The notes under the pieces: generated by a model
Databases searched by the model: none
Told to the model about the DNA's origin: nothing
Seen by the model: only the letters and a program-made list of their open reading frames with translations
Position numbers and translations under genes: made by a program
Assembly (NCBI GenBank): GCA_028713125.1
Contig: JAQTOU010000002.1
Coordinates: forward strand, 142,583 to 206,582
Direction: 5' to 3'
Length of the DNA: 64,000 nucleotides
Origin: Elusimicrobiales bacterium
GTDB taxonomy: Bacteria > Elusimicrobiota > Elusimicrobia > Elusimicrobiales > UBA9959
Part shown: positions 26,431 to 48,762 of the stretch, one piece after another
How positions within the stretch are numbered: the first letter of the stretch is position 1
Layout of the letters: every line of letters starts with the position of its first letter

Positions 26431-26501
26431 AGACAGTGAAGCACCAATCCTGGCCGCCGGCCGCGCTGGCGGGTACAAGCATTATACGGGGAGGCAGTAA
26501 A

Positions 26502-29500
26502 ATGAACCGCATTATTTTTTCGCTTATCTTTTTCGCGCTGGCGTCCGTTTCTAACGCCTACGAAAAAATAGAATTTAAAGGCCAGATACTCAACCCCGCT
26601 TTCCTGAAGCCGGGCGCCCTGGCGGTGGCCAAGGGCAAGGTCTTCGTAGCCGACTCAAAGGCCAACGCCGTGTTCGTCTTCGACGGCGAGGGAAAATTCC
26701 TCAAGAAAATAGAGGGCGCCCTGAGGGAACCGATGTCGATCTCTTTCGGCGGCGGCAAGCTTTACGTAGCCGACACCGGCAACTCCCGCATAGTGGTTTT
26801 CGACACGGAAGGCAAGATGCTCTGGGCCTTTTCGAGCGAAGGCAACGCGCCCGGCCAGTTGAAGGCCCCCGCCGGCATAGCCTACGGGCCGGACGAGAGG
26901 GTCTACGTTTCCGATACGGACAATTCCCGGGTCGCCATTTTCAACTCCGACGGTATCTACCTCTACGGCTTCCCCGTGGCCAAGCAGGACGGCGTCACCA
27001 AGCTTAATCCCGCCAAGATCGTGCTCGACCGCACCGGCGATATTTTCATCTCCGACCCTGAGAAGACGACGGTCCAGAAGTATGACAGGACCGGCAAGCT
27101 GCTCAAGGAATACCAGATGGCCAACAATGGCCTGGCCACGGACAAGTACGGCTCTATTTACGCGATAAATTCCAAAGAGGGCAAGGTCAAGGAAGTTTCT
27201 CCTGCCGGCGAAGTTATCGGTACCTTCGGCACCAGGGGAAAAGGGAAGAGCGAATTCAAGAACCTGCGCGACATCGCTATAGACGAAGCCGGGCTGATCT
27301 ATCTCAGCGACGACGATAACAAGAAAGTCGTCATGATCAGGCTCGAGGGCGTCGAGACCGGGGAAGGGCTGCCCATGGCCTCCATCCTCGACCGGTTCAC
27401 CGTAAAGGGGCCCGTGTCCAAGGCCTCTTTCAAGGCCGACGTTTTCACCGTCACCCCGGACGGCAAGATAGTCGCTTACCTGCCGGAAGCCAAAGAGATC
27501 GCTCTTATCGACGGCGGCACCAAGAAGACGCTTATCAAGGAAGGCAAGCTGCAGGGGCAGGTCCGCCAGCCCCGCGGCATTTTCGTGGACGCCAAGGGCC
27601 TGATCTACGTGGCCGACACCGGCAACGACCGGGTCCAGATCTTCAAGGCGGACGGCTCCTTTGACAACATGTTCGGCGAGAGCGGTTCCGACGAGGGCCA
27701 GTTCAGGCAGCCGTCCTCCGTGGCGGTGAACAGCAAGGGCAATATTTTCGTGGCCGACACCAAGAACAAGAAGATAAAGGCGTTCAACGCCGACGGGATG
27801 TTCCTTTTCGCCACGGACCCGAGCATAGTGTTCGCCAACCCGGTCGCGGTGCGCTGCGACGAGAACAAGAACGTCTATGTTCTGGACTCCGTGCTTAAAA
27901 AAGTGATAGTCCTCAACGATATGGGCAAGTTCCTGCGCACCTGGGACGATTCCGGGAACCTGCAGGATCCCGCCTCCCTCGTCTACGACGGCAAGGGCTT
28001 CTTCTACATCCTGGACAAAGGCTCCTTTAACGTCAAGATCTTCGACGACGCCGGCGCTTTCACGGCCAGTTTCTTCGCCAAGGGCAAAGGCGAGCGCGAG
28101 CTCTGGGCTCCCCAGTCAATGGCTTTCCGCAACGACAAGATCTACATTTCCGACCCGGAGAACGTCCGGATCCAGGCCTTCAGCATCAGCTACCTGCCTC
28201 CGCCTCCCGTCGAATTGAAGGCCGAGGTAGGGGCGAAGAGCGTAAAGCTTTCCTGGAACGCCAAGAGCAACGCCTGGACGGGCGGGTTCAAGGTTTTCCG
28301 CGGCCTGGGCAAGGCCGACCCGGTAGAGATCGGCGGCGGAAAAGATAAAGCTTTCGAAGACACCGGGCTTACCGCCGAAGGCGTCTATTCCTATTACGTG
28401 GCCGGGCTGTCGGCCACGGGCGCGAAGGGCGGGCTTTCCGCCGCGGTAGAGGCCGACTTCAAGCTGCCGGAAGCTCCCAAAGCGGCGGCGGCGCCGGCGG
28501 CAGCGGCTTCCGAGGCCTCAGCGAACAAGAACGTCGCCCCGATGGAGATCCTGGCGCCGGACCTCAGCTACATCTTCTCCGCCAACTACAAGTATTACCA
28601 GAAGAACCCGGTCGGCAAGATCACGGTGAAGAACAACACCGACAGCGATTTCACCAACGTGAAACTGTCGTTCTTCTTCAAGGACTTCATGGACTTCCCG
28701 AGCGACACGATCGTGGAAGAGGTGAAAGCGCATTCGCAGACCGACGTGGCCCTGTCCGCCACGCTCAATAACCGGATACTCAATATCAACGAGGACACGC
28801 CCATCCAGTGCCAGCTCACGCTGACCTATTACCAGGACGGCGCCGAGAAGACCGCCACGCTGAACAAGCCCGTCAAAGTGCTTTCCAAGAACGCCATAGT
28901 GTGGGACAATTCGGCCAGGCTGGCAAACTTCATAACCATCAAGGACACCCCGATCATGGCTTTCAGGGCTTTCGCCCTGGGCGAGAAGAAGAAATTCGAA
29001 GCGGAAGCCGACCTGCTCGACGACAGCATCCTGACCGCGCTGATGTCGTGGGAGGCTTTGGGCGAATACGGTATTTCTTACCTGGCCGACCCCGCGAACC
29101 CCTACGCGACGATCAAGTCCACGGAGAACCTGGTGCTGGACACCGTGCAGTTCCCGCGCAATACGCTGCAGCTCAAGAGCGGCGACTGCGACGACCTTAC
29201 CGCGCTGTTCGCCAGCATATTCGAGGCTTCCGGCCTCCACGTGGCGCTGCTGGACTTCCCCGGCCACATAGCCCTGATGTTCGACACCGGCGAGACCGAC
29301 GCGAACGCGGTGGGCCTGCCCGAGGACTACCTGATAAAATACAACAATACCTGGTGGGTGGGCGTAGAGACCACAATGGTGGGCAAGAGCTTCCAGGATT
29401 CCATCCTGCACGTGGCCGACCTTTACAAGAAGATGGACAAGGACGTGAAGGTCATCGACGTAAGGGCCTCCTGGAACGAGTTCGAGCCGGTCACCCTGCC

Positions 29501-29972
29501 CGAGACCCAGGCGGATACCTACTCGTCGGCGGCGCTGCCGGACCGCATCAAGGGGGCCATCGAGTCCCTTATGGCCGCCCGCTACGACTACCTGAAGAAA
29601 TACTACGGCCGCATATTGCAGGAAATGCCCGGGGATATAGAGACCAACCTCAGCCTGGGCATAGTGCACGCGCAGTACAAGGCTTATGACGCGGCCGCAG
29701 GCTGCTTCAAGAAGGTCCTCGACAAGGAGCCGTTCAACGCAGGAGCGCTCAACAACATGGGCAATTTGAGCTTCACGGAAGGCAAGTACGACGAGGCCAA
29801 GGACTATTATTTCAAAGCCTCCAAGGCCGACCCTTTCGACGGCAATATCTGGCTTAACCTGGCCAGGGTTTCCGGGAAGCTCGGGAAAAAAGACGACGTG
29901 AAGACCTTCGCCGAGCGGGCGGCGAAGATAGAGCCCGAGCTCAAGAGTATCGGGGATAAATTGTCCAAGTGA
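26502..29972 (+). CDS. Secreted multidomain protein: two NHL-repeat beta-propellers, FN3, transglutaminase-like Cys-protease core, C-terminal TPR
   Basis: ATG at 26502 with GGGGAGG upstream and signal peptide MNRIIFSLIFFALASVSNA. About 11 NHL blades (YVADTGNSRIVVFD...). FN3 segment (VKLSWNAKSN...YSYYV). SGDCDDLTALFASIFEASGLHVALLDFPGHIALM. TPR-like tail. Confidence 0.8.
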   Translation: MNRIIFSLIFFALASVSNAYEKIEFKGQILNPAFLKPGALAVAKGKVFVADSKANAVFVFDGEGKFLKKIEGALREPMSISFGGGKLYVADTGNSRIVVFDTEGKMLWAFSSEGNAPGQLKAPAGIAYGPDERVYVSDTDNSRVAIFNSDGIYLYGFPVAKQDGVTKLNPAKIVLDRTGDIFISDPEKTTVQKYDRTGKLLKEYQMANNGLATDKYGSIYAINSKEGKVKEVSPAGEVIGTFGTRGKGKSEFKNLRDIAIDEAGLIYLSDDDNKKVVMIRLEGVETGEGLPMASILDRFTVKGPVSKASFKADVFTVTPDGKIVAYLPEAKEIALIDGGTKKTLIKEGKLQGQVRQPRGIFVDAKGLIYVADTGNDRVQIFKADGSFDNMFGESGSDEGQFRQPSSVAVNSKGNIFVADTKNKKIKAFNADGMFLFATDPSIVFANPVAVRCDENKNVYVLDSVLKKVIVLNDMGKFLRTWDDSGNLQDPASLVYDGKGFFYILDKGSFNVKIFDDAGAFTASFFAKGKGERELWAPQSMAFRNDKIYISDPENVRIQAFSISYLPPPPVELKAEVGAKSVKLSWNAKSNAWTGGFKVFRGLGKADPVEIGGGKDKAFEDTGLTAEGVYSYYVAGLSATGAKGGLSAAVEADFKLPEAPKAAAAPAAAASEASANKNVAPMEILAPDLSYIFSANYKYYQKNPVGKITVKNNTDSDFTNVKLSFFFKDFMDFPSDTIVEEVKAHSQTDVALSATLNNRILNINEDTPIQCQLTLTYYQDGAEKTATLNKPVKVLSKNAIVWDNSARLANFITIKDTPIMAFRAFALGEKKKFEAEADLLDDSILTALMSWEALGEYGISYLADPANPYATIKSTENLVLDTVQFPRNTLQLKSGDCDDLTALFASIFEASGLHVALLDFPGHIALMFDTGETDANAVGLPEDYLIKYNNTWWVGVETTMVGKSFQDSILHVADLYKKMDKDVKVIDVRASWNEFEPVTLPETQADTYSSAALPDRIKGAIESLMAARYDYLKKYYGRILQEMPGDIETNLSLGIVHAQYKAYDAAAGCFKKVLDKEPFNAGALNNMGNLSFTEGKYDEAKDYYFKASKADPFDGNIWLNLARVSGKLGKKDDVKTFAERAAKIEPELKSIGDKLSK

Positions 29973-30026
29973 GGCGGATGGCCGTCTGGGGGGCATAGCC
30001 CTTTGGCCGTCTGAGGAGCAGAGCTC

Positions 30027-30055
30027 TTGATACGGCATGGCCATAGGCCTAATAC
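30027..30055 (+). promoter_or_regulatory. Candidate sigma70-type promoter
   Basis: TTGATA (30027-30032) - 17 nt - TAATAC (30050-30055), 57 nt upstream of the ATG at 30113. Confidence 0.4.
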
Positions 30056-30112
30056 GGCACAAGATAGTGGCGAGACGCCACTAGCATAGCTTCGGAACGG
30101 GAGGGTATTCTT

Positions 30113-30601
30113 ATGAAAAAAGCATTAATAGCGCTGGCGCTGATCTTCGCGGTGGGCGTGGTCCACGCGGAAACAGGCAAAGACTGGAAGGGCTGGTATA
30201 GCACCATGCTCAAGGGCCTTAAGACCAAGGTGCAGAAAAAGCTCGAGTCCAAGACCCGCGTGAGCGCGGTCGCGGCCGTGCGCGGCGCGAAGCAGGGCGA
30301 GGACGCGAACGCGCTTTACTGGAAAGGCGGCGTTTCGGAGAAGGCCCAGAAGAAACTGGCCGAAGAGAAGAAACAGCTGACCGACGCCGTGGAGCTGGTA
30401 GTCGGAGGGGACGTAGAGGGCGGACGCGCCGCCCTTAAAAAGTTCCTGAAGGATAACCCGGAGAGCTTCTTCGCGCAGGACGCGAAAGAGGCGCTGGACA
30501 ACCTGCCGGCCGCCGAAGTAAAACCCGAGGAAACCAAGCCTGAAGCTCCCGCCGAGGAGCCGGCCGCCGAGGAAAAGCCCGCGGCAAAAACCGGAAAGTA
30601 A
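30113..30601 (+). CDS. Secreted Lys/Glu/Ala-rich hypothetical protein
   Basis: GGGAGGG RBS. Signal peptide MKKALIALALIFAVGVVHA. Charged helical body and Pro/Glu/Ala tail. Confidence 0.7.
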   Translation: MKKALIALALIFAVGVVHAETGKDWKGWYSTMLKGLKTKVQKKLESKTRVSAVAAVRGAKQGEDANALYWKGGVSEKAQKKLAEEKKQLTDAVELVVGGDVEGGRAALKKFLKDNPESFFAQDAKEALDNLPAAEVKPEETKPEAPAEEPAAEEKPAAKTGK

Positions 30602-30620
30602 TTCCCGGTTCGTGGCAAAT

Positions 30621-30649
30621 AAAAAACCCCGCCCGGGCGGGGTTTTTTA
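30621..30649. terminator. Bidirectional Rho-independent terminator
   Basis: AAAAAA-CCCCGCCCGGGCGGGG-TTTTTT palindrome between convergent genes. Confidence 0.85.
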
Positions 30650-30666
30650 TTTGTCTTCGATAATTC

Positions 30667-31602
30667 TCAATCGTCCAGCGGCTCGTCCTGGGCCGGGGCG
30701 GCTTTAAGGGGCTCCTGCGTGGCGGGGCCTGCCGGGGCGGCGGGAGCCTGTTGTGCCGCCGGGGGCTGCTGCTGGGTCGTGGGAACCACCCAGGTCTGGT
30801 CCGGTTTCTCGGGGACGAGCGCGGGTTCGGACGACGAGGGCGCTCCTTCCAATACCTGGCCTTCGGGGAGCCAGGTCCTGTCCGGCTGCACGGGCGGGCC
30901 GGACATGGCCGGCGTTTCTCTTTCCGGCTGCGCGGCTTTAGGCGGGAGGTCCCGAGGGGCCGCCCCGGCCGCTTTCAGCTTCGCGTAAACGTCGGTGGCG
31001 GAGCGCCAGAGCATCTGCCTCAGCAGGCCGCTCTCGCGGGCCCCGGGCGAAAAGAAGGGGTAAAGCGGGGCCATCAGCAGGTGGAAAGTAGTTTTGTGAC
31101 GCGCCTCGGTCTCGACGCGCAGGGTGCCGGTAGAAACGGCGAAGTCGGCGGTGAGATAATAGTTGACCCGCAGCGATGAGGGAATAATGAAGATGAAACT
31201 GGTGTCCACCAGGTAGGAGCGGAAAAGGTCGCCGTAAGTCCACCGCCCGAAGCTGGTGAGCTCGAGGCGAAGGGTCCCGCGGCCGCGCGCTTTGTCGTAA
31301 AGGCCGGCCTCCGAGAAGACTTCCCTGGCCTTCCGGCCCAGGGCGGCGGCGTCGGCCGGCTCGACCGGCAGCGGCTTTATCTTTTTCGGCCTTGTCGAGC
31401 CTTCTCCTATGGAATCAGTCGGAGCGCGGTAAGGGAAGTTCTGCCAGTAAACCTGTATTTCGGAAAAAGGGATGATCTCTTTGTCCTCGAGCATAGCCCG
31501 CGCGGTGGAGCGCTCTACGCGTATATCACCGGAATTAAAGGAGGCGCAGCCGAAGAAAGCCGGGAGGGCCGCCAGGAGCAGGAGCAGTTTAATTGTTTTC
31601 AT
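30667..31602 (-). CDS. Hypothetical lipoprotein with Pro/Ala/Gln-rich C-terminus
   Basis: MKTIKLLLLLAALPAFFGC lipobox-like signal. No family recognised. Confidence 0.65.
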   Translation of the reverse strand: MKTIKLLLLLAALPAFFGCASFNSGDIRVERSTARAMLEDKEIIPFSEIQVYWQNFPYRAPTDSIGEGSTRPKKIKPLPVEPADAAALGRKAREVFSEAGLYDKARGRGTLRLELTSFGRWTYGDLFRSYLVDTSFIFIIPSSLRVNYYLTADFAVSTGTLRVETEARHKTTFHLLMAPLYPFFSPGARESGLLRQMLWRSATDVYAKLKAAGAAPRDLPPKAAQPERETPAMSGPPVQPDRTWLPEGQVLEGAPSSSEPALVPEKPDQTWVVPTTQQQPPAAQQAPAAPAGPATQEPLKAAPAQDEPLDD

Positions 31603-31688
31603 GTCGTGATATCAGTCATTCAGAAAAGCCGCATCATTTTATATACTATATTATACAGTTGTATCCATCAAGGGGTGCAGGGGAGCAT

Positions 31689-32885
31689 ATGGCGCTTAAA
31701 AAAATAGAGAAGATCATAAAGACCGAGGGCAAGCCGGATATTATCATCAGGCTGGCCAAGGTGCAGGACATGCGCCGCATCCAGATGCTTTACGCCGAGA
31801 TCTACGGCGGCAGCTATTCCGTGCCGATCGTCACCGACAAAGAGAAGATGCGCCACGCCATAGAGGACAACGACTACTACTGGCTGGTGGCCGAATGCCA
31901 GGACCGCGTTGTGGGCAGCCTTGTCTACGCGCTGGACCTGACCTACAGGAACTCGAAAGCTTTCGGCGCGGTGGTCAGCCAGGAGTTCAGGAAGCACAAC
32001 CTGGCCTTCATGATGATGAAGCTGGTCCTCGACGACATCACTACAAACAAGGACCTGGTGGACCTGGTCTACGCCACCACCCGCACCGCTAACCACGCCC
32101 CGCAGAAACTGACCGAGAGCCTTGGTTTCATAAAGCTGGGCATCTTCCCGAACACCCACAAAGTGCAGGACAACGAGACTCACTGCCTGACCGCCTACCT
32201 TACCGAAAAAGCGCTGCAGCGCCGCCGGCGGAAGCCGCGCATCATTCCCGAAGTCGCGCCCTTCTATGATATCGTCCGCAAGCAGATCGCCCTGGAGAGG
32301 CCGCAGATAAAGAACGTGAAAGGGGAGTACAGCGACCATACCCAGAAGATCCCGCTGCTCAATTTCGAGGCTATCACCGCTCCCGAGTTCATAAAGCACC
32401 GGTACAAGAAGATCAAGCAGACCAGTTTCTTCGAGCATACGGTAATGCCTTTCCACGACCCGAACCTGCTTCTTATAACCCCGGACCAGGGAACCGAGGT
32501 CTACATGACCTTCAACGCGAAGGACAAGTACAGCGTGGTGGTCGCCGGCATGACCAATGAGAAAAGCTTCGCGGTGGTGCTGGAAAGCATAGCCCGCAAG
32601 GTCAGCGAAATGGGCATGGCCTACGTCGAGGTCATCATCGACGCCTACTCGCCCGCCATCCAGCGGGACGCGCTGGACGCGCGCTTCATCCCCAGCGCCT
32701 ATTTTCCGTGCGCGAAGCGGATGGGCGGCAAGCGCTACGACTGCGTGATCTTCTCCCGCACTTTCGAAGTGCTGGACTTCCGCAACGTGAAGATCATTTC
32801 GCTCTACAAGAACTTCCTCCGCGAATACCTCAAGCTCTGGCGCGAGAACTACATCGAGCTGGTCTTCAAGACGGACCAGAAATAG
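31689..32885 (+). CDS. GNAT-family N-acyltransferase (apparent tandem GNAT-like halves), 398 aa
   Basis: ATG at 31689 (the track start at 31593 adds an implausible 32 aa). YWLVAECQDRVVGSLVYALD...VVSQEFRKHNLAFMMMKLVL...ESLGFIKLG is GNAT-like. The second half is less certain. Confidence 0.6.
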   Translation: MALKKIEKIIKTEGKPDIIIRLAKVQDMRRIQMLYAEIYGGSYSVPIVTDKEKMRHAIEDNDYYWLVAECQDRVVGSLVYALDLTYRNSKAFGAVVSQEFRKHNLAFMMMKLVLDDITTNKDLVDLVYATTRTANHAPQKLTESLGFIKLGIFPNTHKVQDNETHCLTAYLTEKALQRRRRKPRIIPEVAPFYDIVRKQIALERPQIKNVKGEYSDHTQKIPLLNFEAITAPEFIKHRYKKIKQTSFFEHTVMPFHDPNLLLITPDQGTEVYMTFNAKDKYSVVVAGMTNEKSFAVVLESIARKVSEMGMAYVEVIIDAYSPAIQRDALDARFIPSAYFPCAKRMGGKRYDCVIFSRTFEVLDFRNVKIISLYKNFLREYLKLWRENYIELVFKTDQK

Positions 32886-32924
32886 GCGGGACAATAGAGT
32901 TTTTGCCTTATAAGGAGACAAGCC

Positions 32925-34094
32925 GTGGCCGACCTTTCTGTTGAAGACAAGCTTCCGCCTTTTTACAAGCCGCTTAAGAGCCGGGCGGCCGTTGACGCTT
33001 TCTTTGAAACCCCGGCTTTTGAGTATTCGCCGCTTACCTCCAAGGCTTTCTGCGCCGCGATGCGCGCGGCGCTGGCTTTCCAGGGCGGGCGCGCGCCGGT
33101 ATTAAAGGCGCTCTATAAAGCGGAAGGGTTCGACCCCGCCTCCGTGAAAACGGAGAAGGATATCGCGAATATTCCTTTTATCTTCGTGTCCGCCCTTAAA
33201 GAGCGCGACCTGACTACCCTTCCTTATTCGAAGATAGTGCTTGAGCTTAAATCGAGCGGAACGTCGGGGCAGCGCAGCCGGATGCAGCTCGACAAAGGCT
33301 CGCTGATGCGGGTGCGCCGCATGGCCTGGCAGGTTTTCGCCGGGCTCGGGCTGACGGACCTTGAGCGCGCCCACGACTATATCTGCTTCACCTACGACCC
33401 GGAAGTGGCCAAGGACCTTGGCACGGCCTGGACGGACAAGCTTCTATCCGGCTTCACGAAAAAAGGGGAGATCTTTTACACTTTCCGCTGGAGCAAAGAG
33501 AAGAAAGATTTTTATTTTGACCTGGACGGAGCGGTGCTGGCCATGAAGAAATTCGAGGAAGCCGGCTCGCTGGTGCGGCTGGTCGGTTTCCCCGCTTTCG
33601 CGCTTAAACTGACCGAAGAATTCAAAAAGCGCTACGGCCGCTACCCGGAACTCAACCCTGAGTCCAGCGTGGTGACCGGCGGCGGCTGGAAGACCCTGGC
33701 CGACGAGGCCATGGACAAGAAAGTCTACCGCAAGATCCTGGCGGACAATCTGGGCGTGCCGGTGGAGAACGTAAGGGACCTGTTCGGCATGGTGGAGCAC
33801 GGCGTGCCCTACGTGGACTGCCGGCTCGGGAATTTCCATGTGCCGAACTACGGCCGCATCATAGCGCGCCATCCCGGCACGCTTGAGCCGCTTGGCTATA
33901 ACAAGGTCGGGCTGCTGCAGTTCATCACGCCTTACCTCGCCAGCTATCCTTCGCTTTCCGTCCTCTCCTCCGATTTCGGTCTGCTGCGCCCGAAGTGCGC
34001 CTGCGGCCTGCCCGGCCCGGTGCTCGAAATAAAAGGCCGCGCCGGAGTTACAAAACTGAAAGGCTGCGCGATCTCCGCCGCGACGATGCTATGA
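32925..34094 (+). CDS. LuxE-like acyl-protein synthetase (adenylate-forming)
   Basis: GTG start with GGAG 7 nt upstream. IPFIFVSALKERDL...LKSSGTSGQRSRMQLD matches the LuxE-family 'FK....SSGTTG..S' region. The length is typical. Confidence 0.7.
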   Translation: MADLSVEDKLPPFYKPLKSRAAVDAFFETPAFEYSPLTSKAFCAAMRAALAFQGGRAPVLKALYKAEGFDPASVKTEKDIANIPFIFVSALKERDLTTLPYSKIVLELKSSGTSGQRSRMQLDKGSLMRVRRMAWQVFAGLGLTDLERAHDYICFTYDPEVAKDLGTAWTDKLLSGFTKKGEIFYTFRWSKEKKDFYFDLDGAVLAMKKFEEAGSLVRLVGFPAFALKLTEEFKKRYGRYPELNPESSVVTGGGWKTLADEAMDKKVYRKILADNLGVPVENVRDLFGMVEHGVPYVDCRLGNFHVPNYGRIIARHPGTLEPLGYNKVGLLQFITPYLASYPSLSVLSSDFGLLRPKCACGLPGPVLEIKGRAGVTKLKGCAISAATML

Positions 34095-36733
34095 CGATAT
34101 ACAACACTTATTTATTCGGCAAAGTTCTCGATAAAACTTCCTGGACCCCGGCCGAGCTTGAAAAGATAGGCCTGCAGGCGCAGGCGGCCCGCGAAGCTAT
34201 GCGCGGCGCTTCCCGCGAATACATAATCAATACCCTGGTAAAAGCCGGGAAGCTGTTCGGAAAAGGCGGGAAGTACCGCAAGGCCGCGCTGGCCCACCTT
34301 AAAGAGCACATCACTTTCTCCGAGCCGGTCATCGACAAAAGCCTGGACGTGATACCGGAGCTGCTGGATAAGCAGGGGATGAACAAGCGGATGAGCATGG
34401 AGCTCTTCCTTCCCTACGCCCTGGAAACCACGGTGGAGCGGCGCGGCTATTCCGGCCTGATACGGGCCATGCCGAAAGGCGTGGTCCTGCACGTGGGCGC
34501 CGGGAACGTTTTCCTCGGCATCCTGGACTCGCTGGTGATAGGCTTCCTCACGAAGAATGTGAATATAGTGAAGCTTTCCTCTTCCGGCTCCAACTTCATA
34601 AATATTTTCATGGACGCGCTGAAAGAGGTGGACGAGGAAGGGATCCTTGCCAGGTCCGCCGCCATAATAAGCTGGAAAGGCGGCAGCCAGGGCCTGGAAG
34701 AGGCCGCGCTGAAGAACGTGAACGCCGTTTTTGTCTGGGGCGGCTACGAAGCGGTGCAGTCCTACCGCAAGATAGCCCCGATAGACGTGCGGGTGGAGGG
34801 CTTCGGCCCCAAGACCAGCGTAGGCGTGGTCTTTGAAAGCTGCGTGGAGAACGAGGGGATGGACGCCGTGGCTCGGCGCGCGGCCACCGACGCTTCGCTT
34901 TGGGACCAGGCCGCCTGCTCCTCGCTGCATACGCTTTACTTCGTCGCCCCGGCCAAAAAACACAAAGCCCTCGCCGCCGATTTCCTGAAAGCGGCAAAAA
35001 AACATTTTACTCAGCTGGCTAAAGACCTGCCGCCGGGGAAGCTGTCGCCCGACGAGATGGTGGAGATAAACAAGGCCCGCCAGCTCGCGCGCGTGGACAG
35101 CGCGCTGGGGAACGCCTCTTATGAAAGCTCGGCGCCGAAGACGGACTGGACGATGATCTACGAGAAGGACCCCGTCTACCGCGTCTCGCCGCTCAACCGC
35201 GTGCTTTACGTGAAGACCGTGGAGAGCCTCGAGGAAGTCAGGGACCGGCTGCTGCCGATGCGCGGCTATATCCAGACCGTGGGCGTCGGGGGCTCGATTG
35301 AGCGCAAGAAAGTGATGGAGGTGCTGGGTCCCGCCGGCATAGCCCGCATAGTAAGGCTGGGCAAGATGCTGGAGGAGTCCAACGGCTCTCCGCACGACGG
35401 TATCTTCCCGATGATGTCGCTGGTGAACTGGCTGCCCATCGAGGAGAAGCCCTCGCAGCTGGACCGCCTGAGCGAGATGGTGGAGCACGCGAAGAGCCGC
35501 AGCGTTTTCTACGGCCGCCATTTCAAGTCCGTGCCGAAGATAACCGGCATGGAGGATTTCGCCAAGGTTCCTTTCCTCGAGAAGCACCATGTGCTGGACA
35601 ATACCCCGCCGGACAGCTCGGACCTGCTTACCTCCCGGGTGCAGCGCGGCATTTATTTCGCCAGCGGCGGCTCCACGGGCCAGCCCAAGTATATTTTTTA
35701 CGACCAGAAAGAATACGACCATACCTGCCGGATGCTCGCTTTCACCATGGAGGCGGCGGGCCTGGGCGAAAGGGATACGATAGCGAACCTGTTCATCGCC
35801 GGGAACCTCTGGTCCAGCTGGCTCTCCGTGGAAAAAGCCATCTCCTATACCAAGGCCATCTCGGTGCCCGTCGGCAGCAATTTGCCGCTCGAGAATATCG
35901 TGGGCTACCTGGAGGACTTCAGCGTGACCGCCGTGATAGGCCTGCCCTCCTTCCTGGTGAAGCTGGCCGAATACGTGAAAGCGAATCCGAAGAAGCACAA
36001 GCTCCTGGTAAATAAGATATTTTACGGCGGCGAATATGTCGGAGAAGAGATGGTCAAGTTCTTCAAGGGCGTGTTCCCCGGAGTGGACGTGCGGTCGGCC
36101 GGCTACGCCACCGCCGACGCCGGCGTAGTGGGCTTCCAGTGCCCCGTCTGCGTGAAAGGGCAGCACCATATTTTCTCTTCCAGCCAGTTCATAGAATTCG
36201 TGGACCAGGATACCATGGCCCCGGTGAAAGAGGGGGCGGTCGGCGAGCTGGTGGTGACCTGCCTTTCTAAAAAGAGCATGCCTATCATCCGCTACCGGGT
36301 CGGGGACCTCGGGCGCTGGATCATGAAGCCCTGCGCCTGCGGCAGGAAGGAGCACCTTTTCGAGATCCTCGGCCGCTGCGACGACCGCATCCACGTCGGG
36401 GGGGCCCACCTCTTCGTGAACGATATCCAGAACGCGCTGGGGAAAGTTCCTGAGCTCAGCTTTAATTTCCAGGCCGTGATCGACAAAAAAGGCCATAAGG
36501 ACACGCTGAAAGTGCGCGTCGAGGTCAAGGACGAGGCTTCGCTGCCGCGTTCCGCCGAGCTGGCGAACGTGCTCTGGCTTCAGATCCAGAGCCACTGCGA
36601 GGACCTGCACGAGAGCGTGCGTCTGAAATGGCTGGACAAGCCCGTCATCGAGGTCCTGAAGCCCAACACCATAGAGCGCATCCAGCGCACCGGCAAGATC
36701 CGCAAGGTCATCGATAAAAGGGTGAAGGTCTGA
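34091..36733 (+). CDS. LuxC-like acyl-CoA/acyl-protein reductase fused to a PaaK/F390-synthetase-like adenylate-forming ligase, 880 aa
   Basis: ATGA overlap with the LuxE-like gene. The N-terminal ~470 aa are ALDH-fold LuxC-like (GVVLHVGAGNVFLGILDSL, WDQAACSSLHTLYF with candidate catalytic Cys). The C-terminal ~400 aa carry FASGGSTGQPKYIFY, YRVGDLG and GRCDDRIHVGG. Confidence 0.75.
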   Translation: MTIYNTYLFGKVLDKTSWTPAELEKIGLQAQAAREAMRGASREYIINTLVKAGKLFGKGGKYRKAALAHLKEHITFSEPVIDKSLDVIPELLDKQGMNKRMSMELFLPYALETTVERRGYSGLIRAMPKGVVLHVGAGNVFLGILDSLVIGFLTKNVNIVKLSSSGSNFINIFMDALKEVDEEGILARSAAIISWKGGSQGLEEAALKNVNAVFVWGGYEAVQSYRKIAPIDVRVEGFGPKTSVGVVFESCVENEGMDAVARRAATDASLWDQAACSSLHTLYFVAPAKKHKALAADFLKAAKKHFTQLAKDLPPGKLSPDEMVEINKARQLARVDSALGNASYESSAPKTDWTMIYEKDPVYRVSPLNRVLYVKTVESLEEVRDRLLPMRGYIQTVGVGGSIERKKVMEVLGPAGIARIVRLGKMLEESNGSPHDGIFPMMSLVNWLPIEEKPSQLDRLSEMVEHAKSRSVFYGRHFKSVPKITGMEDFAKVPFLEKHHVLDNTPPDSSDLLTSRVQRGIYFASGGSTGQPKYIFYDQKEYDHTCRMLAFTMEAAGLGERDTIANLFIAGNLWSSWLSVEKAISYTKAISVPVGSNLPLENIVGYLEDFSVTAVIGLPSFLVKLAEYVKANPKKHKLLVNKIFYGGEYVGEEMVKFFKGVFPGVDVRSAGYATADAGVVGFQCPVCVKGQHHIFSSSQFIEFVDQDTMAPVKEGAVGELVVTCLSKKSMPIIRYRVGDLGRWIMKPCACGRKEHLFEILGRCDDRIHVGGAHLFVNDIQNALGKVPELSFNFQAVIDKKGHKDTLKVRVEVKDEASLPRSAELANVLWLQIQSHCEDLHESVRLKWLDKPVIEVLKPNTIERIQRTGKIRKVIDKRVKV

Positions 36734-36735
36734 AC

Positions 36736-37998
36736 ATGAGAAAGCGCATGACGGAGCGAAAAAAAAGCGGCTTAGCGTTTCTCCTGCTGGCGTCGGCCTG
36801 TAATTTCGCGTTCGTTCCCTGCTCGCCCGCGGCCGGGCCTGCCCTGGTCATCCCGGGAGCGGCCGAACAACTTTATATTTTTTCAGCTGAAAAAACCGCG
36901 GCTCCGGAAGCTGCGGCCCCGGTTCCCGGAGAGGTTGCTCGGTCTTCCTCCCGGGGCCCTGCGGGCGGGTATAATGCCCTGATATGGACTCCGGCCATTA
37001 CGGACGACTGGTATGAGTGGTGGTACTACAAGGTCGTGGTGCCCGGCACGGACGACGCTTTTTATTTTTGCTACGGGGTGGTGAACCCCTGGGACCTTGA
37101 CCTGACAAAGCCGGCTTCGCGGTCATATGTAAGCGCCGGCAGCTTCGCCGATAAAGAGACAGCAGAGCAGACCTTCAAGCCCGGCGATTTTTCAGCAAGT
37201 TCCGAGTCCACTTTCGTCCGGATCGGGGGCAACCAGGCCACCGACCGGGCGCTGAAAGGCAGCCTGCCCGCTCCGGGCGGCGGGGAGATCTCCTGGGACC
37301 TGACCGTGGAGAAGGACTGGGGCGTGAACCTGATGGCCTGGACTATGTCCCAGGGCTGGCTCTCCAATATTTACTGGTATCCCGCCCAGGCGAGCGCGCG
37401 GATGAGCGGGACGATAAAATACCGCGGCAGGATCATTTCCCTGAACGGGGCGCCCGCCTACCAGGACCGAAACTGGGGCCGGAGCTTCCCGAAGTGGTGG
37501 ACCTGGCTGGTCTCGAATAATTTCAAGAACTCTCCCGGCACGGTGCTGGCCTCCGGCGGCGGGCAGCCGAAGATCTATCCCGGCGTAGAACCTATACAGA
37601 CCGTGACCATCGGCCTCCGCCACGAGGGGAAGGAATATTTGTTCCGGCCCACTATGGGGGATATCGTCACCGTGGACGTGAATTTCGGGAAGTGGGAAGT
37701 GAACGCGCGCAATAAATGGGGGGAGAGGATGCAGATCTCCGCCTACGCCCCCCGCGAGAAGTTCCTCCTTCTGCAGTTCATGACGCCGCAGGGGAAGATG
37801 TATAACGATTATGAGGCTTTGAAAGGGAATATCAAAGTGAAGCTGTACAAGGGCGCAAAGCTTCTCGCCGACCTGGAAACAGCGGAGGGCGGCATCGAAT
37901 TCGGTTCTTTCGCCTCTTTCGACCCGAAACCTAATAGCGGAACTTCCGGAGAGGTCAGCTTTGACGGCCTTTTCTCTGGAGAAAACCATTTACAGTAG
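36736..37998 (+). CDS. Exported tocopherol-cyclase-family protein
   Basis: 2-nt gap to the upstream gene. Signal-like N-terminus KKSGLAFLLLASACNFAF. WYEWWYYKVVVPGTDDAFYFCYGVVNP resembles EGWYFRVSIP..ESFCFMYSVENP of plant VTE1. APAYQDRNWGRSFPKWWTWLVSNNF...LASGGG resembles [25 protein letters not shown]...LTAGGG. Confidence 0.65.
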   Translation: MRKRMTERKKSGLAFLLLASACNFAFVPCSPAAGPALVIPGAAEQLYIFSAEKTAAPEAAAPVPGEVARSSSRGPAGGYNALIWTPAITDDWYEWWYYKVVVPGTDDAFYFCYGVVNPWDLDLTKPASRSYVSAGSFADKETAEQTFKPGDFSASSESTFVRIGGNQATDRALKGSLPAPGGGEISWDLTVEKDWGVNLMAWTMSQGWLSNIYWYPAQASARMSGTIKYRGRIISLNGAPAYQDRNWGRSFPKWWTWLVSNNFKNSPGTVLASGGGQPKIYPGVEPIQTVTIGLRHEGKEYLFRPTMGDIVTVDVNFGKWEVNARNKWGERMQISAYAPREKFLLLQFMTPQGKMYNDYEALKGNIKVKLYKGAKLLADLETAEGGIEFGSFASFDPKPNSGTSGEVSFDGLFSGENHLQ

Positions 37999-38127
37999 CA
38001 AGCCGACGGGTCTTTTTTCATTTCGGCACTGGGTCTTTGTACCCATGCCCGCCTAAGTTCTCCGTGTTATCCTTTATATAGCAGGTTCCCGTATTGTCCT
38101 AAGACCTTACGGAACCCAAGGAAAACT

Positions 38128-39399
38128 GTGAATACAACAAGCTATCTTCTCACCTCTCTCTTCCTGGCCCAGGCGGGCCTTCTCTCCGCCCAAACCGGCG
38201 CGTCGGCTCCCGGCTCCACCAAGGAGCTGCTGCTTACTGCCACCGACCATACCAAGGATTCCAGGTCCCGCTGTGAAGCGATGAAGGCGCTCGGCGACAG
38301 CAAGGACGAAACGGTCCGCTATATCCTGACCAAAGCTATAATGGACCCGGATGCGGGGGTCCAGAGCTGCTCCGCCATGATAGCCGGTGAATCCAGGAAT
38401 CCCCAGGCCGTCGACATGCTTTTAAAGAACGTTAAAGGCTACCTGGACTCAGGCGCAGGGGAGAAAGCCGTTAAGCCCCGCCTGGCCGCCATAAGTTCTA
38501 TCTGGGCGCTCGGTGAAATAGGCAGCAAGGGGATAGCTCTCGAACTCAGGGAATTTTACAGGACCCCGGACACCACCCTGAAAATAAACAATTTGATCAG
38601 TATGGGCAAGCAGCACGGGGACGCCGCGGCCGCGGCTTTCATAAAGAGCGTGGCCCTGTCTCCTGAAGAAGCCGGCGCCGTGCGCGCCGCGGCTTTTGAA
38701 ATGCTGGAGGAAATGGGGAAAGGCCTGGCTATACCCGGCCTGGCCCTCTCCGCCGATATCGGGATACCTCCTGGCGATATTATCTATTCCGGCGGCCTTA
38801 CAGGGGAGATCAATGAGTGGGTAAGCCCCGACCTGCCCGTTGGCCACTCCGGGATCCTTGTCGGCACCGAGGCCGGGAACGGGCGGATCTACGTTCTTAT
38901 CGGCGACTGCGTGCCCGGCTTTTTTACCCCGCCCGACGTGCGCAATATAAAAGCCTGGAAGAATTTCACCCACCAGTTCAAGTATCCTTACTACGGCAAT
39001 AAAACGACCAGCCCGGCCCCCACGGCCGAGCAGCGGGCGAAGATCGTCGCCTTATCCCTGGAGCTGGGAACCAAAGGCTATAAATACGACTATACGCATA
39101 TCTCCCAGAAAGGCCCCGTTAAATTCGACTGCGTGGGGTACTCCGAATATATTTACGAATCCGCGGGCCTGAACCCTACAGACAATAAATACGAGTCGGG
39201 CCTGGGCTGGCCGCTGACGCCGTGGGAGCAGTATTCCTCCCTGGTTTCCGGCAAGTCGCAGGCGGTAATAGCTTCTCCCTTTCCCCCGGCCTCCGAAGTT
39301 CCGCCGGCCCCCGCAGAAATGCTGAGAAAAGGCTTGTTCGGAACCGCCGGAGAGCCGCTTAAAGCGAACATCGCTGCAGAGCCGGAGCCGGCTAAATAA
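38128..39399 (+). CDS. Secreted HEAT-repeat protein with C-terminal permuted papain-like (YiiX/NlpC-P60-type) domain
   Basis: GTG start with AAGGA RBS. Signal peptide LLTSLFLAQAGLLSAQ. HEAT/PBS-lyase-like repeats (AMKALGDSKDETV..., AMIAGESRNPQAV...). His before Cys: VGHSGILVG ... KFDCVGYSEYIYESAGL. Confidence 0.6.
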   Translation: MNTTSYLLTSLFLAQAGLLSAQTGASAPGSTKELLLTATDHTKDSRSRCEAMKALGDSKDETVRYILTKAIMDPDAGVQSCSAMIAGESRNPQAVDMLLKNVKGYLDSGAGEKAVKPRLAAISSIWALGEIGSKGIALELREFYRTPDTTLKINNLISMGKQHGDAAAAAFIKSVALSPEEAGAVRAAAFEMLEEMGKGLAIPGLALSADIGIPPGDIIYSGGLTGEINEWVSPDLPVGHSGILVGTEAGNGRIYVLIGDCVPGFFTPPDVRNIKAWKNFTHQFKYPYYGNKTTSPAPTAEQRAKIVALSLELGTKGYKYDYTHISQKGPVKFDCVGYSEYIYESAGLNPTDNKYESGLGWPLTPWEQYSSLVSGKSQAVIASPFPPASEVPPAPAEMLRKGLFGTAGEPLKANIAAEPEPAK

Positions 39400-39411
39400 A
39401 CCACCGGCGGG

Positions 39412-39446
39412 AAAAAAGGCCCTGGCTGCTGTAGCCGGGGCCTTTT
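39412..39446 (+). terminator. Rho-independent terminator
   Basis: AAGGCCCTGGCT / AGCCGGGGCCTT form a stem (one G-U pair) with a 5-nt loop, then TTTT. Confidence 0.75.
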
Positions 39447-39515
39447 CCATATCCTGGCAGTTCTAATAATAACGATCAGGGTATAGCGAAAATATAGGTA
39501 TAATTTCAAATCAAT

Positions 39516-41033
39516 ATGAAAGATATTCTGGTCCGCTGCGCGGAAAAATCAGGAAAGTATTTTAAAACGGCGGCGCTATTAGCTTCCTTGCTGGCCGTAT
39601 TTCCTTCAGGGGCAGCGGCCGATACGCTCGCCGACATAAAGGCCCGCGGGGTGTTCCGCTGGGGTGCCGACGCGGAGGGCGGCGCGCCCTATGTGTACCA
39701 GGACCCTAAAGATCCAGACAAGCTTATCGGCTTCGAAGTCGACCTTGCGGCGGCTTTGGCCGCGAAGTGGGGCGTGCGGGCCGAGATGGTGCAGAACAAC
39801 TGGGACGGGCTGATCCCGGCGCTGGGCCGCGGCAGCTTCGACTTCATCATGAACGGGCTGGAGATCACCCCTGAACACCTGAAGCAGGTGGGGATGAGCA
39901 GGCCTTACTATATCTACAGCCAGCAGATAGTCACCACTAAGGACAGGAAAGATATAAACGCCCCGGAGGACCTCAAGGGTAAAAAAGTAGGCGTCCTTTC
40001 GGCCAGCATGTCGCAGCGCGTGCTGGAAAAAATGGGCGGGGTCACGATAGTGGCCTATGCCGGCAACTCCGAGCCTTGCCGCGACCTGAAGAACGGGCGC
40101 CTTGACGCTTCGCTGATGGATTTCCCGATAGCTCTGTATTACGCTAAACCATACGCCGAGCTTAAATTCACCGGCAAGCCTTTCGCCTTCGGCTATTACG
40201 GGATAGCCGTTCCTAAAAAAGACGCGGAGCTGCTGCAGGACATAAACCTGGCGGTGGACTCCCTGCTGGCCGAGGGGAAACTGAAAGCCATCTACAAGAA
40301 GTGGGGCATGTGGGAAGAAAGCATGGGGTCCAGGATGAAGCGCTACGGCAAGGAGGACGCGGTGGTGGAGGAGAGCGCGGTCTCCGGGCTGCCGTGGGGG
40401 AAATACCTCTGGCTGCTCCTCAAGAGCGCGGTCATAACGGTGGAGCTCTCGGCCATTTCAATGGTGCTGGCCGTAGGGCTCGGGCTCATGCTTGCGCTGG
40501 CACGACTCTACGGCGCCGCGCCGCTGCGCTGGCTGAGCACGGCCTACGTGGAAGTGGTGCGCGGCACGCCTCTCCTTATACAACTTTATATCTTGTACTA
40601 CGGCCTGCCGAATATCGGGATAAAGCTGAGCGCTTTCGTGGCGGCTATATTCGGCCTTGGCATGAACTACGCCGCTTACGAGGCCGAGAACTACCGGGCA
40701 GGCATCCAGGCCATCCCGCGCGGCCAGATGGAGGCGGCGATGTCCCTCGGCATGGAAAAGATGCAGGCCGTCAGGTACGTGATCCTGCCGCAGGCCATGC
40801 GCATAGTCATCCCGCCGATCAGCAACGACTTCATCGCCCTTTTCAAGGATTCCTCCCTGGTCTCCGTCATCACCATGGTCGAGCTGACGAAGATGTACGG
40901 GATGCTGGCCAACGCAACTTACAATTACATGGGCCTCGGCCTGCTGACGGCGGCTATTTATTTCGGTCTCAGCTACCCGGCCTCGCTGGCGGCCAGGCAC
41001 CTGGAGAAAAAACTCGCGTATGATCATCGTTAA
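39516..41033 (+). CDS. Polar amino-acid ABC transporter, fused periplasmic substrate-binding domain and permease
   Basis: Signal peptide. SBP_bac_3-like region (GADAEGGAPYVY, NWDGLIPALGRGSFDFIMNGLEIT). Then a His/Glu/Gln/Arg-type permease (EAA-like loop AAYEAENYRAGIQAIPRGQMEAAMSLGM). Confidence 0.85.
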   Translation: MKDILVRCAEKSGKYFKTAALLASLLAVFPSGAAADTLADIKARGVFRWGADAEGGAPYVYQDPKDPDKLIGFEVDLAAALAAKWGVRAEMVQNNWDGLIPALGRGSFDFIMNGLEITPEHLKQVGMSRPYYIYSQQIVTTKDRKDINAPEDLKGKKVGVLSASMSQRVLEKMGGVTIVAYAGNSEPCRDLKNGRLDASLMDFPIALYYAKPYAELKFTGKPFAFGYYGIAVPKKDAELLQDINLAVDSLLAEGKLKAIYKKWGMWEESMGSRMKRYGKEDAVVEESAVSGLPWGKYLWLLLKSAVITVELSAISMVLAVGLGLMLALARLYGAAPLRWLSTAYVEVVRGTPLLIQLYILYYGLPNIGIKLSAFVAAIFGLGMNYAAYEAENYRAGIQAIPRGQMEAAMSLGMEKMQAVRYVILPQAMRIVIPPISNDFIALFKDSSLVSVITMVELTKMYGMLANATYNYMGLGLLTAAIYFGLSYPASLAARHLEKKLAYDHR

Positions 41034-41838
41034 GAACCTGGTAAAGAGCTACAAAGGCCACAAGGTCCTGGACGGCATCAGCATGGGCCAGGCCAGGGGC
41101 GAGAAGGTCGTCCTGATAGGCCCCAGCGGCTGCGGCAAGACCACGCTTCTGCGCTGCCTCAACCAGCTCGAAGTTTTCGATTCCGGCAAGATCAGCGTCG
41201 CGGGCGTTACCCTGGACGCCGCCTCCGACCATTCTTCCAAAGCGTGGAAGGCCAGCCGGCACGAGCTGCGAATGCGCGTCGGGATGGTTTTCCAGAGCTT
41301 CAACCTTTTTCCGCACATGACCGCCCTTGAGAACATTACCCTCGCGCCGACGAAAGTAAAAGGTATGCACGCAAGCGATGCGGGAAAGCTCGGCATGGAT
41401 TTCCTTGAAAAAGTCGGCCTCGGCGAGAAAGCTAAATTCTTCCCGTCCCAGCTCTCCGGCGGCCAGCAGCAGCGAGTGGCCATAGCGCGCGCTCTGGCCA
41501 TGAAGCCGGAGGTCATGCTTTTCGACGAGCCTACCAGCGCCCTCGACCCGGAAGTCAAAGAGGACGTGCTGGGGGTTATGAGGAAGCTGGCTTACGAAGG
41601 GATGACCATGCTGGTCATCACCCACGAGATCTCCTTCGCCAGGGACATAGCGGACAGGATAATTTTCATGGACGCGGGAAAGGTCGTTGAGGCGGGCCCC
41701 GCCAAAGAGATCTGCAGCCATCCCAAAGAAGCGCGGACCATTGAATTTCTAAGCAAGCTCCTGCCAAGGAGCCCGAGGCAGAAAACAGCGGTAAAGGTTC
41801 CGGACAACCAGCTTTCGCTGGAAGATCTCTGGGACTAA
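41020..41838 (+). CDS. Polar amino-acid ABC transporter ATP-binding protein
   Basis: Walker [10 protein letters not shown], signature [15 protein letters not shown], Walker [12 protein letters not shown]. 14-nt overlap with the permease gene. About 25-aa C-terminal extension. Confidence 0.9.
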
Positions 41839-41847
41839 AAATTAAGA

Positions 41848-44106: not shown

Positions 44107-44123
44107 AATGCGGGCCGGGGTCC

Positions 44124-45398: not shown

Positions 45399-45517
45399 TA
45401 CACCTATTGTATTATATTGGGGCGCCGGCTAACCCGCGGCCGCATTTATATAATATAATCTTCTTAACCGCGCGTTTGCGGAGCCCGTTATAGCCGGCGG
45501 GGGGAAAGGGAGCCTTT

Positions 45518-45871
45518 ATGAAAGTGCTGATCGTGGACGACAATGCCCTTACGAGGGACATGATAAAAGATATTTTGCTCGACATGTCCCACCAGGTGGT
45601 GGGCGAGGCCGAGAACGGCGACCTGGCTATAGAGGCCTATAAACAACTGAACCCCGAACTGGTGCTGCTGGACCTGATAATGCCGGGAAAAACAGGGCTT
45701 GAGGTCCTGGAGATACTCAGGGGAATAAACCCCCTGGCTAAAGTGGTCATGGTGACGGCCGTACAGCAGGACGAGATAAACAAAAAACTTTTCGAGAAGG
45801 GCGCGACGGCCATACTGCATAAGCCTTTTTCCTACTCGGAGCTTGAAGAGGTCCTCAAGCAGGTTTCCTGA
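45518..45871 (+). CDS. Single-domain response regulator (CheY-like receiver)
   Basis: MKVLIVDDN, LVLLDLIMPGKTG (phospho-Asp), VVMVTA, ILHKPF. GGGAG RBS. Confidence 0.9.
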   Translation: MKVLIVDDNALTRDMIKDILLDMSHQVVGEAENGDLAIEAYKQLNPELVLLDLIMPGKTGLEVLEILRGINPLAKVVMVTAVQQDEINKKLFEKGATAILHKPFSYSELEEVLKQVS

Positions 45872-45877
45872 AGCCCT

Positions 45878-46471: not shown

Positions 46472-46493
46472 CCGGTTTTCCGCGTTCCGTGGC

Positions 46494-46530
46494 GAAAAAA
46501 AGGCCGTCCGCTTCAAGCGGACGGCCTTTT
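46494..46530. terminator. Bidirectional Rho-independent terminator
   Basis: AAGGCCGTCCGC / GCGGACGGCCTT form a 12-bp stem, with an A-run before and a T-run after, between convergent genes. Confidence 0.85.
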
Positions 46531-46543
46531 GATTTGCCGGCTA

Positions 46544-48761: not shown

Positions 48762-48762
48762 A

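Follow-up and report, generated by a model that had tools for sequence, protein, structure and literature searches.

Leupeptin and other peptide aldehydes find wide use as protease inhibitors. A route to such compounds that does without nonribosomal peptide synthetases (NRPSs) was described only in 2020, as an operon, leupABCD, with an adjacent MFS transporter gene in Xenorhabdus, Photorhabdus and Klebsiella michiganensis/oxytoca, attributed to Li et al. (2020, Angew. Chem., doi 10.1002/anie.202005506). With the transporter adjoining it, leupABCD spans 5,831 bp (K. michiganensis CAV1374, CP011636.1, 315353-321183); another source of LeupA-D is Xenorhabdus bovienii SS-2004. The K. oxytoca leupeptin operon is listed as genes for an MFS protein, a LuxE/PaaK-family acyltransferase, an acyl-CoA reductase, a PaaK-family ligase and a GNAT, and leupeptin is reported to arise through separate AMP-dependent ligases, which form the amide bonds, and a reductase, which forms the aldehyde. 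In a later publication by that group, the leup operon is described as narrower in distribution than another gene that they surveyed. Here we analyse a 64-kb stretch of Elusimicrobiales DNA (the window; positions are window positions unless another locus is named) that carries four genes under study, g1 to g4. We give a probability of about 55% to the reading that the first three of them (31689-36733) encode a minimal NRPS-independent pathway of the leupeptin-operon kind, leading to a small N-acylated peptide or amino aldehyde.

An earlier note on this DNA, made from the letters alone, had assigned the four products to the GNAT, LuxE, LuxC, PaaK-type and tocopherol-cyclase families, and profile hidden Markov model scans bear out all five assignments. 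In Pfam, residues 38-147 of g1 match Acetyltransf_1 (GNAT; 1.5e-6), g2 matches LuxE (2.7e-33), g3 matches LuxC (3e-67) together with AMP-binding and AMP-binding_C_2, and g4 matches Tocopherol_cycl (PF14249) at 3.8e-30, with 105.6 bits against a gathering threshold of 26.6 bits over profile positions 100-334 of 335. The second, different adenylate-forming domain that had been read into g3 is recovered not only by these Pfam matches but also by the PaaK-type models of NCBIfam (2e-45). The equivalog cut-offs are widely missed, with a best score of 155 bits against 700 for PaaK, 125 against 750 for LuxC and 86 against 550 for LuxE, so g2 and g3 are members of these families and not orthologues of the named enzymes; no paa genes lie near g3. 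The absence of LuxD and of any luciferase-like gene holds among the genes scanned (26436-41838) and among the recurrent flanking genes of related loci, the whole 64 kb not having been scanned for these families.

The residues that carry the acyl group in the Lux system can be followed into g2 and g3. In LuxE, K238 is required for adenylation and C364 carries the acyl group (PMC9157457). Aligned to P. phosphoreum LuxE (7xc6_E), g2, an adenylating enzyme without the PaaK C-terminal subdomain, retains the equivalent of K238 as the lysine of a GGGWK loop, and Cys380 on its flexible C-terminal tail (KGCAIS, motif KGCxxS) aligns with C364; this tail cysteine is retained in 85 of 85 orthologues. In g3, Cys276 in WDQAACSS aligns with the catalytic Cys296 of LuxC (7xc6_A) and is invariant in the orthologue alignment. 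Since the loop lysine, the tail cysteine and Cys276 are all retained, it is very likely that the LuxE-to-LuxC cysteine relay and the reduction with NAD(P)H are conserved in the two proteins.

The family matches and the conserved relay cysteines would also suit a Lux-type fatty-acid reductase that supplies a long-chain fatty aldehyde for a lipid, wax or ether-lipid, with the GNAT and the second ligase modifying the lipid, and conservation across the order, described below, would befit a membrane component. In LuxC, however, the C-terminal segment of the neighbouring subunit (P460-P488) closes a 40-angstrom hydrophobic myristate cleft (PMC9157457), and this oligomerisation and cleft segment is missing from g3: the alignment to LuxC 7xc6_A stops at LuxC residue 444, and the ligase domain, which begins at g3 residue 454, stands in its place. 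A long-chain fatty substrate is therefore unlikely. The LuxC and LuxE scores far below their cut-offs, the lack of LuxD, acyl carrier protein (ACP) or lipid-synthesis genes conserved nearby and the fit of the full gene set to a peptide-aldehyde operon also speak against a fatty-acid reductase, which we consider improbable. Tambjamine TabE is a different ALDH-like reductase and was set aside as irrelevant. As a separate observation, LuxE-like and unfused LuxC-like genes stand directly after homocitrate-synthase-like and aconitase-like genes at L089 2766-13153, on a 1.7-Mb contig, and are followed there by a tryptophan-halogenase-family gene and a P450-methyltransferase fusion; by its gene content this looks like another natural-product use of LuxE/LuxC, possibly on a chain-extended amino acid.

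The ligase half of g3 still has the C-terminal subdomain of an adenylate-forming enzyme, with T867, G868 and K869 (the TGK lysine) invariant in the alignment. Its best PDB match is PaaK (4r1l, 7.9e-35), and its structural relatives comprise PaaK enzymes and PaaK-like natural-product ligases.

The first gene is, as modelled, a tandem GNAT, with a second half (about residues 186-365) whose predicted GNAT fold is visible by structure only. The AlphaFold (AF2) model of full-length g1 reaches a pLDDT of 85.5, and a separate model of residues 186-398 (pLDDT 74.6) matches GNAT acetyltransferases only when compared with the PDB by Foldseek (best 7e-7); a long C-terminal helix follows the second GNAT half. 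Neither Pfam nor hhalign of the N-terminal against the C-terminal half gave sequence evidence for a GNAT in the latter. Foldseek searches with the full-length protein returned matches dominated by the N-terminal GNAT, and the sole two-domain match, a histidine acetyltransferase, aligned badly. The canonical Q/RxxGxG/A CoA motif is present in neither half, the N-terminal one reading RKHNLA.

Conservation of these genes was followed in one genome per species (185,579 species), scanned with two g3 peptide motifs; of the 89 relatives found, 79 loci were kept, all from Elusimicrobiota, and in these the fusion architecture of g3 persists at 48-98% identity. A protein identical to g3 is on record for an Elusimicrobiales metagenome-assembled genome; an exact look-up of g3 in assemblies gave no entry. 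One of the trio-bearing loci, L064, is labelled Elusimicrobium minutum, a cultured relative. Among the 72 loci with at least 2.5 kb of sequence upstream of g3, full-length g1 and g2 stand in the same order with g3 in 70, the two exceptions being trios split by insertions of more than 5 kb; the block that splits the trio at L005 548-5835 measures 5.3 kb and includes an IS200-like Y1 transposase gene. Upstream synteny (genes for a lipoprotein, a secreted protein of 162 aa and an NHL/TPR protein of 1178 aa) extends over 38-60 loci. An M29 aminopeptidase gene lies downstream of g3 in 23 related loci and is, in many related genomes, the ancestral gene next to g3; in the ancestral arrangement an MFS-like gene, present in 16 related loci, follows the peptidase. 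The conserved order and the syntenic neighbours across the Elusimicrobiota loci point clearly to vertical inheritance of the trio at a fixed chromosomal site.

Some loci carry inserts of 1-3 kb at the g1-g2 or the g2-g3 junction. Genes for DUF1007 and a NicO nickel transporter are inserted within the trio at L054 3228-4696 and at equivalent positions in L055, L058 and L068, and unrelated inserts occur at L008 2074-3366 and L051 6136-7011. The inserts were considered as absent pathway parts, for example an ACP, and rejected as such, being unrelated cargo (DUF1007/NicO, a DNA methylase, an AAA_14 ATPase, a phosphonate-binding protein and the IS200-like transposase). The distance from g2 to g3 exceeds 100 nt in 15 of the 70 loci, a spacing that one would not expect of proteins supposed to act as a complex.

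The conserved flanking genes (NHL/TPR, 162-aa secreted, lipoprotein, M29 peptidase, MFS-like and PorV-like) gave no clear pathway link; the MFS-like gene could possibly encode an exporter, as the MFS gene of leup operons suggests by analogy, a weak connection. These surroundings also bear on a glycan-modification module, in which the trio would make an unusual N-acyl group for an amino sugar, as in flagellin-glycosylation islands or O-antigen clusters. LuxC/LuxE homologues and an AMP-dependent synthetase do occur in flagellin glycosylation islands of Aeromonas and Enterobacteriaceae, but the ACP, FabG, pse (nonulosonic-acid) and glycosyltransferase genes of those islands are conserved beside the trio in none of the 79 loci nor in other phyla, and such a role is very improbable.

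Outside the order, a search of 1.84 billion representative proteins with g3 gave 486 matches at 1e-30 or better; more than 130 of the best 150 are full-length LuxC::ligase fusions of 800-900 aa at 27-39% identity, and some of the fusions come from Armatimonadota, Candidatus Kapabacteria and other Elusimicrobiota. The whole trio, with overlapping start and stop codons, recurs in Armatimonadota (L084), on a 783-kb metagenome contig (L086) and in 'bacterium CPR1' (L090), and these loci, like L001 and L003, have the three-gene form without a stand-alone ligase. In Streptomyces sp. ET3-23 (L085), genes for a stand-alone PaaK-like ligase and an MFS transporter precede the trio. The orthologues outside the order are full-length, with 28-33% identity for g1, 33-42% for g2 and 27-35% for g3; taken over all trios in other phyla, the accompanying full-length g1 orthologues show 27-33%. 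We put forward only tentatively the wider proposal that the trio represents a separate family of minimal aldehyde synthases, independent of NRPSs and so far uncharacterised, which spans several phyla (Elusimicrobiota, Armatimonadota, 'CPR1' and Streptomycetaceae) and of which the gammaproteobacterial leupeptin operon would be one elaborated offshoot. In Elusimicrobiales its product, a small N-acyl peptide or amino aldehyde or a pyrazinone formed from one, would on this proposal serve housekeeping, as own-protease control or signalling, and not as an accessory weapon.

The relation to the leupeptin operon was approached through plasmid sequences, in which tblastn with g3 gave operons from Salmonella (IncF) and Kitasatospora. 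Within 5.76 kb, the Salmonella operon has genes for a LuxE-like acyl-protein synthase (375 aa), a LuxC::AMP-binding fusion (802 aa), a PaaK-family ligase (433 aa) and a GNAT (294 aa), and so agrees with leupABCD in order and size. The 5,831 bp of leupABCD leave about 2.4 kb for leupB, as much as a LuxC::ligase fusion takes up, and from this operon size and the 802-aa Salmonella protein leupB is itself most likely such a fusion. Published leupA/leupB primers did not match the Salmonella operon, which is thus not a near-identical copy of the Klebsiella one. It lies on the Salmonella enterica conjugative plasmid CP054717.1 at 105717-111475 (L087 5509-11267), flanked by toxin-antitoxin modules and recombinase genes, so that Salmonella may carry a protease-inhibitor pathway on a plasmid.

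The identity of g2 to the Salmonella LuxE-like protein is 32% (5e-59) and that of g3 to the Salmonella fusion 25.5% over 769 aa (7e-59). Between g1 and the 294-aa GNAT, BLAST found no match and hhalign a weak one, at 70% probability and confined to the N-terminal half. To the 378-aa GNAT of Streptomycetaceae, g1 is clearly orthologous (27% over the full length, 8e-42), and the five-gene operon of the Streptomyces locus is found again on a plasmid of Kitasatospora sp. NBC_00070 (L088). A bit-score matrix of ligase domains separates three clades. One holds the ligases that are fused in the four- and five-gene operons, the second the stand-alone ligases of those operons, and the third the fused ligases of the three-gene cassettes, which are about equidistant from the other two. 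By these comparisons the Streptomycetaceae operons bridge the three-gene cassettes and the leup-type operons, and the cassette in the window is to be placed as a sister variant of the leupeptin operon and not as its orthologue. The author of the earlier note knew of no characterised system with this gene set, but one exists: besides its GNAT and MFS genes, the leupeptin operon has genes for a LuxE/PaaK-family protein, an acyl-CoA reductase and a PaaK-family ligase. The note's proposal of an undescribed lipid or small-molecule pathway does not stand as made: the absent LuxC cleft segment makes the lipid option unlikely, and the pathway is not of an undescribed kind, the leup gene set being known, though the single-ligase, tandem-GNAT three-gene form is new.

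Carboxylate activation, reduction to an aldehyde and N-acylation, which the earlier note had foreseen, fit the domains and catalytic residues. For the order of the steps, their substrates and the product, we infer the following scheme on the logic of the leupeptin operon. Leupeptin (acetyl-Leu-Leu-argininal) calls for a single acylation, two amide bonds and a single round of activation and reduction, to which a GNAT, two ligases and LuxE/LuxC correspond; with one ligase fewer, the window would be expected to yield an N-acyl dipeptide aldehyde. The tandem GNAT g1 would N-acylate, probably acetylate, an amino acid from acyl-CoA, whereupon the PaaK-like ligase of g3 would adenylate the carboxylate of that product and couple a second amino acid to it, forming the one amide bond. 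The synthetase g2 would then adenylate the new C-terminal carboxylate and hold it as a thioester on Cys380, and its tail would swing the acyl group to Cys276 of g3, where the LuxC-like domain would reduce it with NAD(P)H to the aldehyde. The resulting N-acyl dipeptide aldehyde would have one residue fewer than leupeptin and would probably act as a protease inhibitor or serve as a pyrazinone precursor.

Should the ligase instead make the acyl-CoA donor, the product would be an N-acyl amino aldehyde. In this single-residue variant the PaaK-like domain would form an acyl-CoA from acetate or a short-chain or aryl acid, the GNAT would acylate one amino acid and LuxE/LuxC would reduce it to an N-acyl amino aldehyde or semialdehyde, possibly in primary metabolism, like the N-acetyl protection used when arginine and lysine are made. 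As a rule, members of the PaaK family are CoA ligases, and acyl-CoA is the donor for GNATs; the trio occupies the same syntenic site across the whole order, as a housekeeping function would, and no transporter or regulator is tightly linked to it. On the other side, the AMP-ligases of the only characterised relative are reported to form amide bonds, the PaaK equivalog cut-off is missed by a wide margin, and no semialdehyde-consuming gene is conserved beside the trio. We regard the single-residue variant as unlikely, and a primary-metabolic role of the cassette nevertheless as a serious alternative.

Several observations weigh against the proposed leupeptin-like pathway itself. The sequence of the g3 ligase does not tell an amide-forming enzyme from one that makes a CoA thioester, and its domain falls in a clade of its own, apart from both leup-type ligases. 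The CoA-binding motif of g1 (RKHNLA) is degenerate, and the likeness of g1 to the leup-type 294-aa GNAT is weak. The link to leup runs through annotations, gene sizes and the Salmonella look-alike, not through characterised Leup proteins, and the identities of 25-32% to that look-alike are low. Order-wide vertical inheritance at a stable site is atypical for a secondary-metabolite cluster and could mean a primary-metabolic role. Finally, the trio has no adjacent transporter: none of the neighbouring genes is an MFS transporter gene, and the MFS-like gene lies about 13 kb off. The latter was considered as an orthologue of the MFS protein of the Streptomyces cluster and rejected, as the two share no specific similarity. 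A second copy of the ligase was not found in the 64-kb window by tblastn with g3.

The fourth gene had been taken, in the earlier note, as an exported cyclase-like enzyme within one self-contained pathway, in which the product of the trio would be cyclised outside the cytoplasm. The gap of 2 nt between g3 and g4, with no terminator found between them, suggests that g4 is probably co-transcribed with the trio in the window, the arrangement is kept in two 98%-identical relatives (L005 and L006), and g4 is by sequence a confident Tocopherol_cycl member with an export signal, its hydrophobic N-terminus bearing a lipobox-like LLASAC (read by eye). The comparative data largely refute such a four-gene pathway. 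Among the 61 loci with enough downstream sequence, g4 follows the trio only in those two relatives and is absent from the other 59; in the 96%-identical L007 it is internally deleted, only 37554-37649 and 37913 onward of the window still matching, with the trio intact; and in 13 metagenomic loci with g4 relatives (35-76% identity) no LuxE, LuxC or long GNAT gene is near. The search for a conserved neighbourhood thus upheld the GNAT/LuxE/LuxC::ligase trio (70/72 loci) but not its association with a tocopherol-cyclase gene (2/61), and the conserved unit consists of the first three genes only. Given the two occurrences, the decay in L007 and the relatives that never stand beside LuxE/LuxC, g4 is best described as a recently acquired, lineage-specific passenger with an independent, probably envelope-related role outside the conserved cassette, and extracytoplasmic cyclisation of the trio's product is hardly credible. 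It is this passenger that lent the cluster its exotic look. A literature search for work joining LuxC/LuxE with tocopherol cyclase, or with Elusimicrobia, found nothing relevant.

Directly after g3 lies a variable island, the cargo of which differs from species to species. In the window it extends over about 13 kb (36734-50023), where g4 is accompanied by genes for a HEAT-repeat protein, for an amino-acid ABC transporter, for a membrane/TPR protein of 752 aa and for others, and it displaces the ancestral M29 peptidase and MFS-like genes to 50024-52720. At L007 9644-9816, two short remnants of g4 lie between intact flanking genes, in what looks like recent decay in progress. The neighbours of the g4 relatives vary and include carbamoyltransferase, histidine kinase, CrtC/lipocalin-like, LolA-like and other genes. 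Relatives adjoin a CrtC/lipocalin-like gene in L095 (4032-5381) and a LolA-like gene in L097 (7029-7832), which hints that the bacterial branch of the family may handle hydrophobic molecules in the cell envelope. No solved structure related to g4 was detectable by sequence. The gene after g4 (38128-39399) is shared with none but the three closest relatives. Its product is a secreted protein of 423 aa that has HEAT repeats at the N-terminal end and, in the C-terminal part, a CVGYSEY motif that recalls NlpC/P60-type cysteine peptidases, a resemblance only.

The features of the locus are collected in the table below. The layout described in the earlier note was confirmed, with four open reading frames on the same strand, a gap of 39 nt between g1 and g2, an ATGA shared by the g2 stop and the g3 start at 34091-34094 (read from the sequence), the 2-nt gap before g4 and, as boundaries, the divergent spacer and a 129-nt spacer between g4 and the next gene. 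The divergent spacer has a GC content of 40% against about 59% for the window and contains a promoter-like site, TTCAGA-17-TATACT, at 31619-31647 on the + strand (a consensus match only); a GGGGAG ribosome-binding site precedes g1. Elsewhere in the window, GC content rises to 0.65-0.68 at 16001-20000, against about 0.59 in the remainder, and a tRNA scan of the window returned zero tRNA genes.

Features of the g1-g4 locus and associated genes (window positions).
Feature	Position	Strand	Description
Upstream lipoprotein gene	30667-31602	-	divergent from g1
Divergent spacer	31603-31688	.	86 nt, AT-rich, between upstream lipoprotein gene and g1
g1	31689-32885	+	398-aa acyltransferase, tandem GNAT as modelled
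g2	32925-34094	+	389 aa, GTG start; LuxE-like acyl-protein synthetase
g3	34091-36733	+	880-aa fusion, LuxC-like reductase::PaaK-like ligase
g3, LuxC-like thioester reductase domain	34217-35431	+	residues 43-447
g3, PaaK-like adenylate-forming ligase domain	35450-36721	+	residues 454-877, including C-terminal subdomain
g4	36736-37998	+	420 aa; exported or lipoprotein-like tocopherol-cyclase-family protein
M29 aminopeptidase gene	50024-51232	+	Pfam Peptidase_M29 4e-104; located in window by tblastn
MFS-like membrane protein gene	51443-52720	+	Pfam MFS_1 1.4e-6, under family cut-off; located by tblastn

If the trio is a working relative of the leupeptin operon, the logic of ligase plus LuxE/LuxC would extend well beyond its presently supposed range, into several phyla most of which are uncultivated, and its smaller three-gene form would be easy to express and engineer. 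It would, moreover, be a core-like gene set in one order, which raises the question of what use the aldehyde is to the cell.

The likeness of g4 to the tocopherol cyclases VTE1/SXD1 lies in its match to their family model (PF14249); it differs from them in being exported or lipoprotein-like, in leaving the first 100 or so profile positions unmatched and in its context, prenylquinone pathway genes not being seen among the g4 neighbours scanned. The Lux system LuxC-LuxE(-LuxD) (7XC6, PMC9157457) provides a homologous synthetase and reductase whose catalytic and relay residues are conserved in g2 and g3, whereas the window locus, among the genes scanned, is without LuxD and LuxAB, has a fused ligase in place of the LuxC C-terminal segment, scores far under the equivalog cut-offs and probably acts on a substrate other than myristic acid. 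With the pathways to antipain, flavopeptin and Streptomyces leupeptin (NRPS with a terminal reductase) and to livipeptin (L/F-transferase with a C-minus NRPS; PMC10548850), the cassette would share its expected product class, N-acyl peptide aldehydes, as well as the reduction of an activated thioester to the aldehyde and the involvement of an N-acetyltransferase. Unlike those NRPS- and tRNA-dependent pathways, however, the window locus has no NRPS, carrier-protein or condensation domains, its carrier would be the cysteine of the LuxE tail and not phosphopantetheine, and its reductase belongs to the ALDH superfamily and not to the SDRs.

Closer relatives are the uncharacterised five-gene operons of Streptomycetaceae (L085, L088), which contain the same trio with overlapping start and stop codons and a g1-like 378-aa GNAT (27-28% over the full length), but add an upstream stand-alone PaaK-like ligase and an MFS gene, and both of whose ligases group with the Salmonella (leup-type) ligases and not with that of g3. 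The leup operon shares four families with the window (LuxE/PaaK-family synthetase, LuxC-like reductase, PaaK-family ligase and GNAT), the order LuxE, reductase, ligase and, on the scheme proposed here, independence from NRPSs and a C-terminal carboxylate that is activated and reduced to an aldehyde. The two differ in that the window has one ligase and no stand-alone leupC-type gene, and in its GNAT, a 398-aa tandem protein encoded first in order, in contrast to the 294-aa protein encoded last in the leup layout. The hosts of the leup operon are gammaproteobacterial pathogens and symbionts, in which it is accessory, whereas the host of the window is an uncultivated, free-living member of the Elusimicrobiales, an order throughout which the cassette is vertically inherited. 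The kind of pathway is thus already known, and what our analysis suggests as new is a three-gene, single-ligase, tandem-GNAT variant of the leupeptin-type pathway in Elusimicrobiales and several other phyla.

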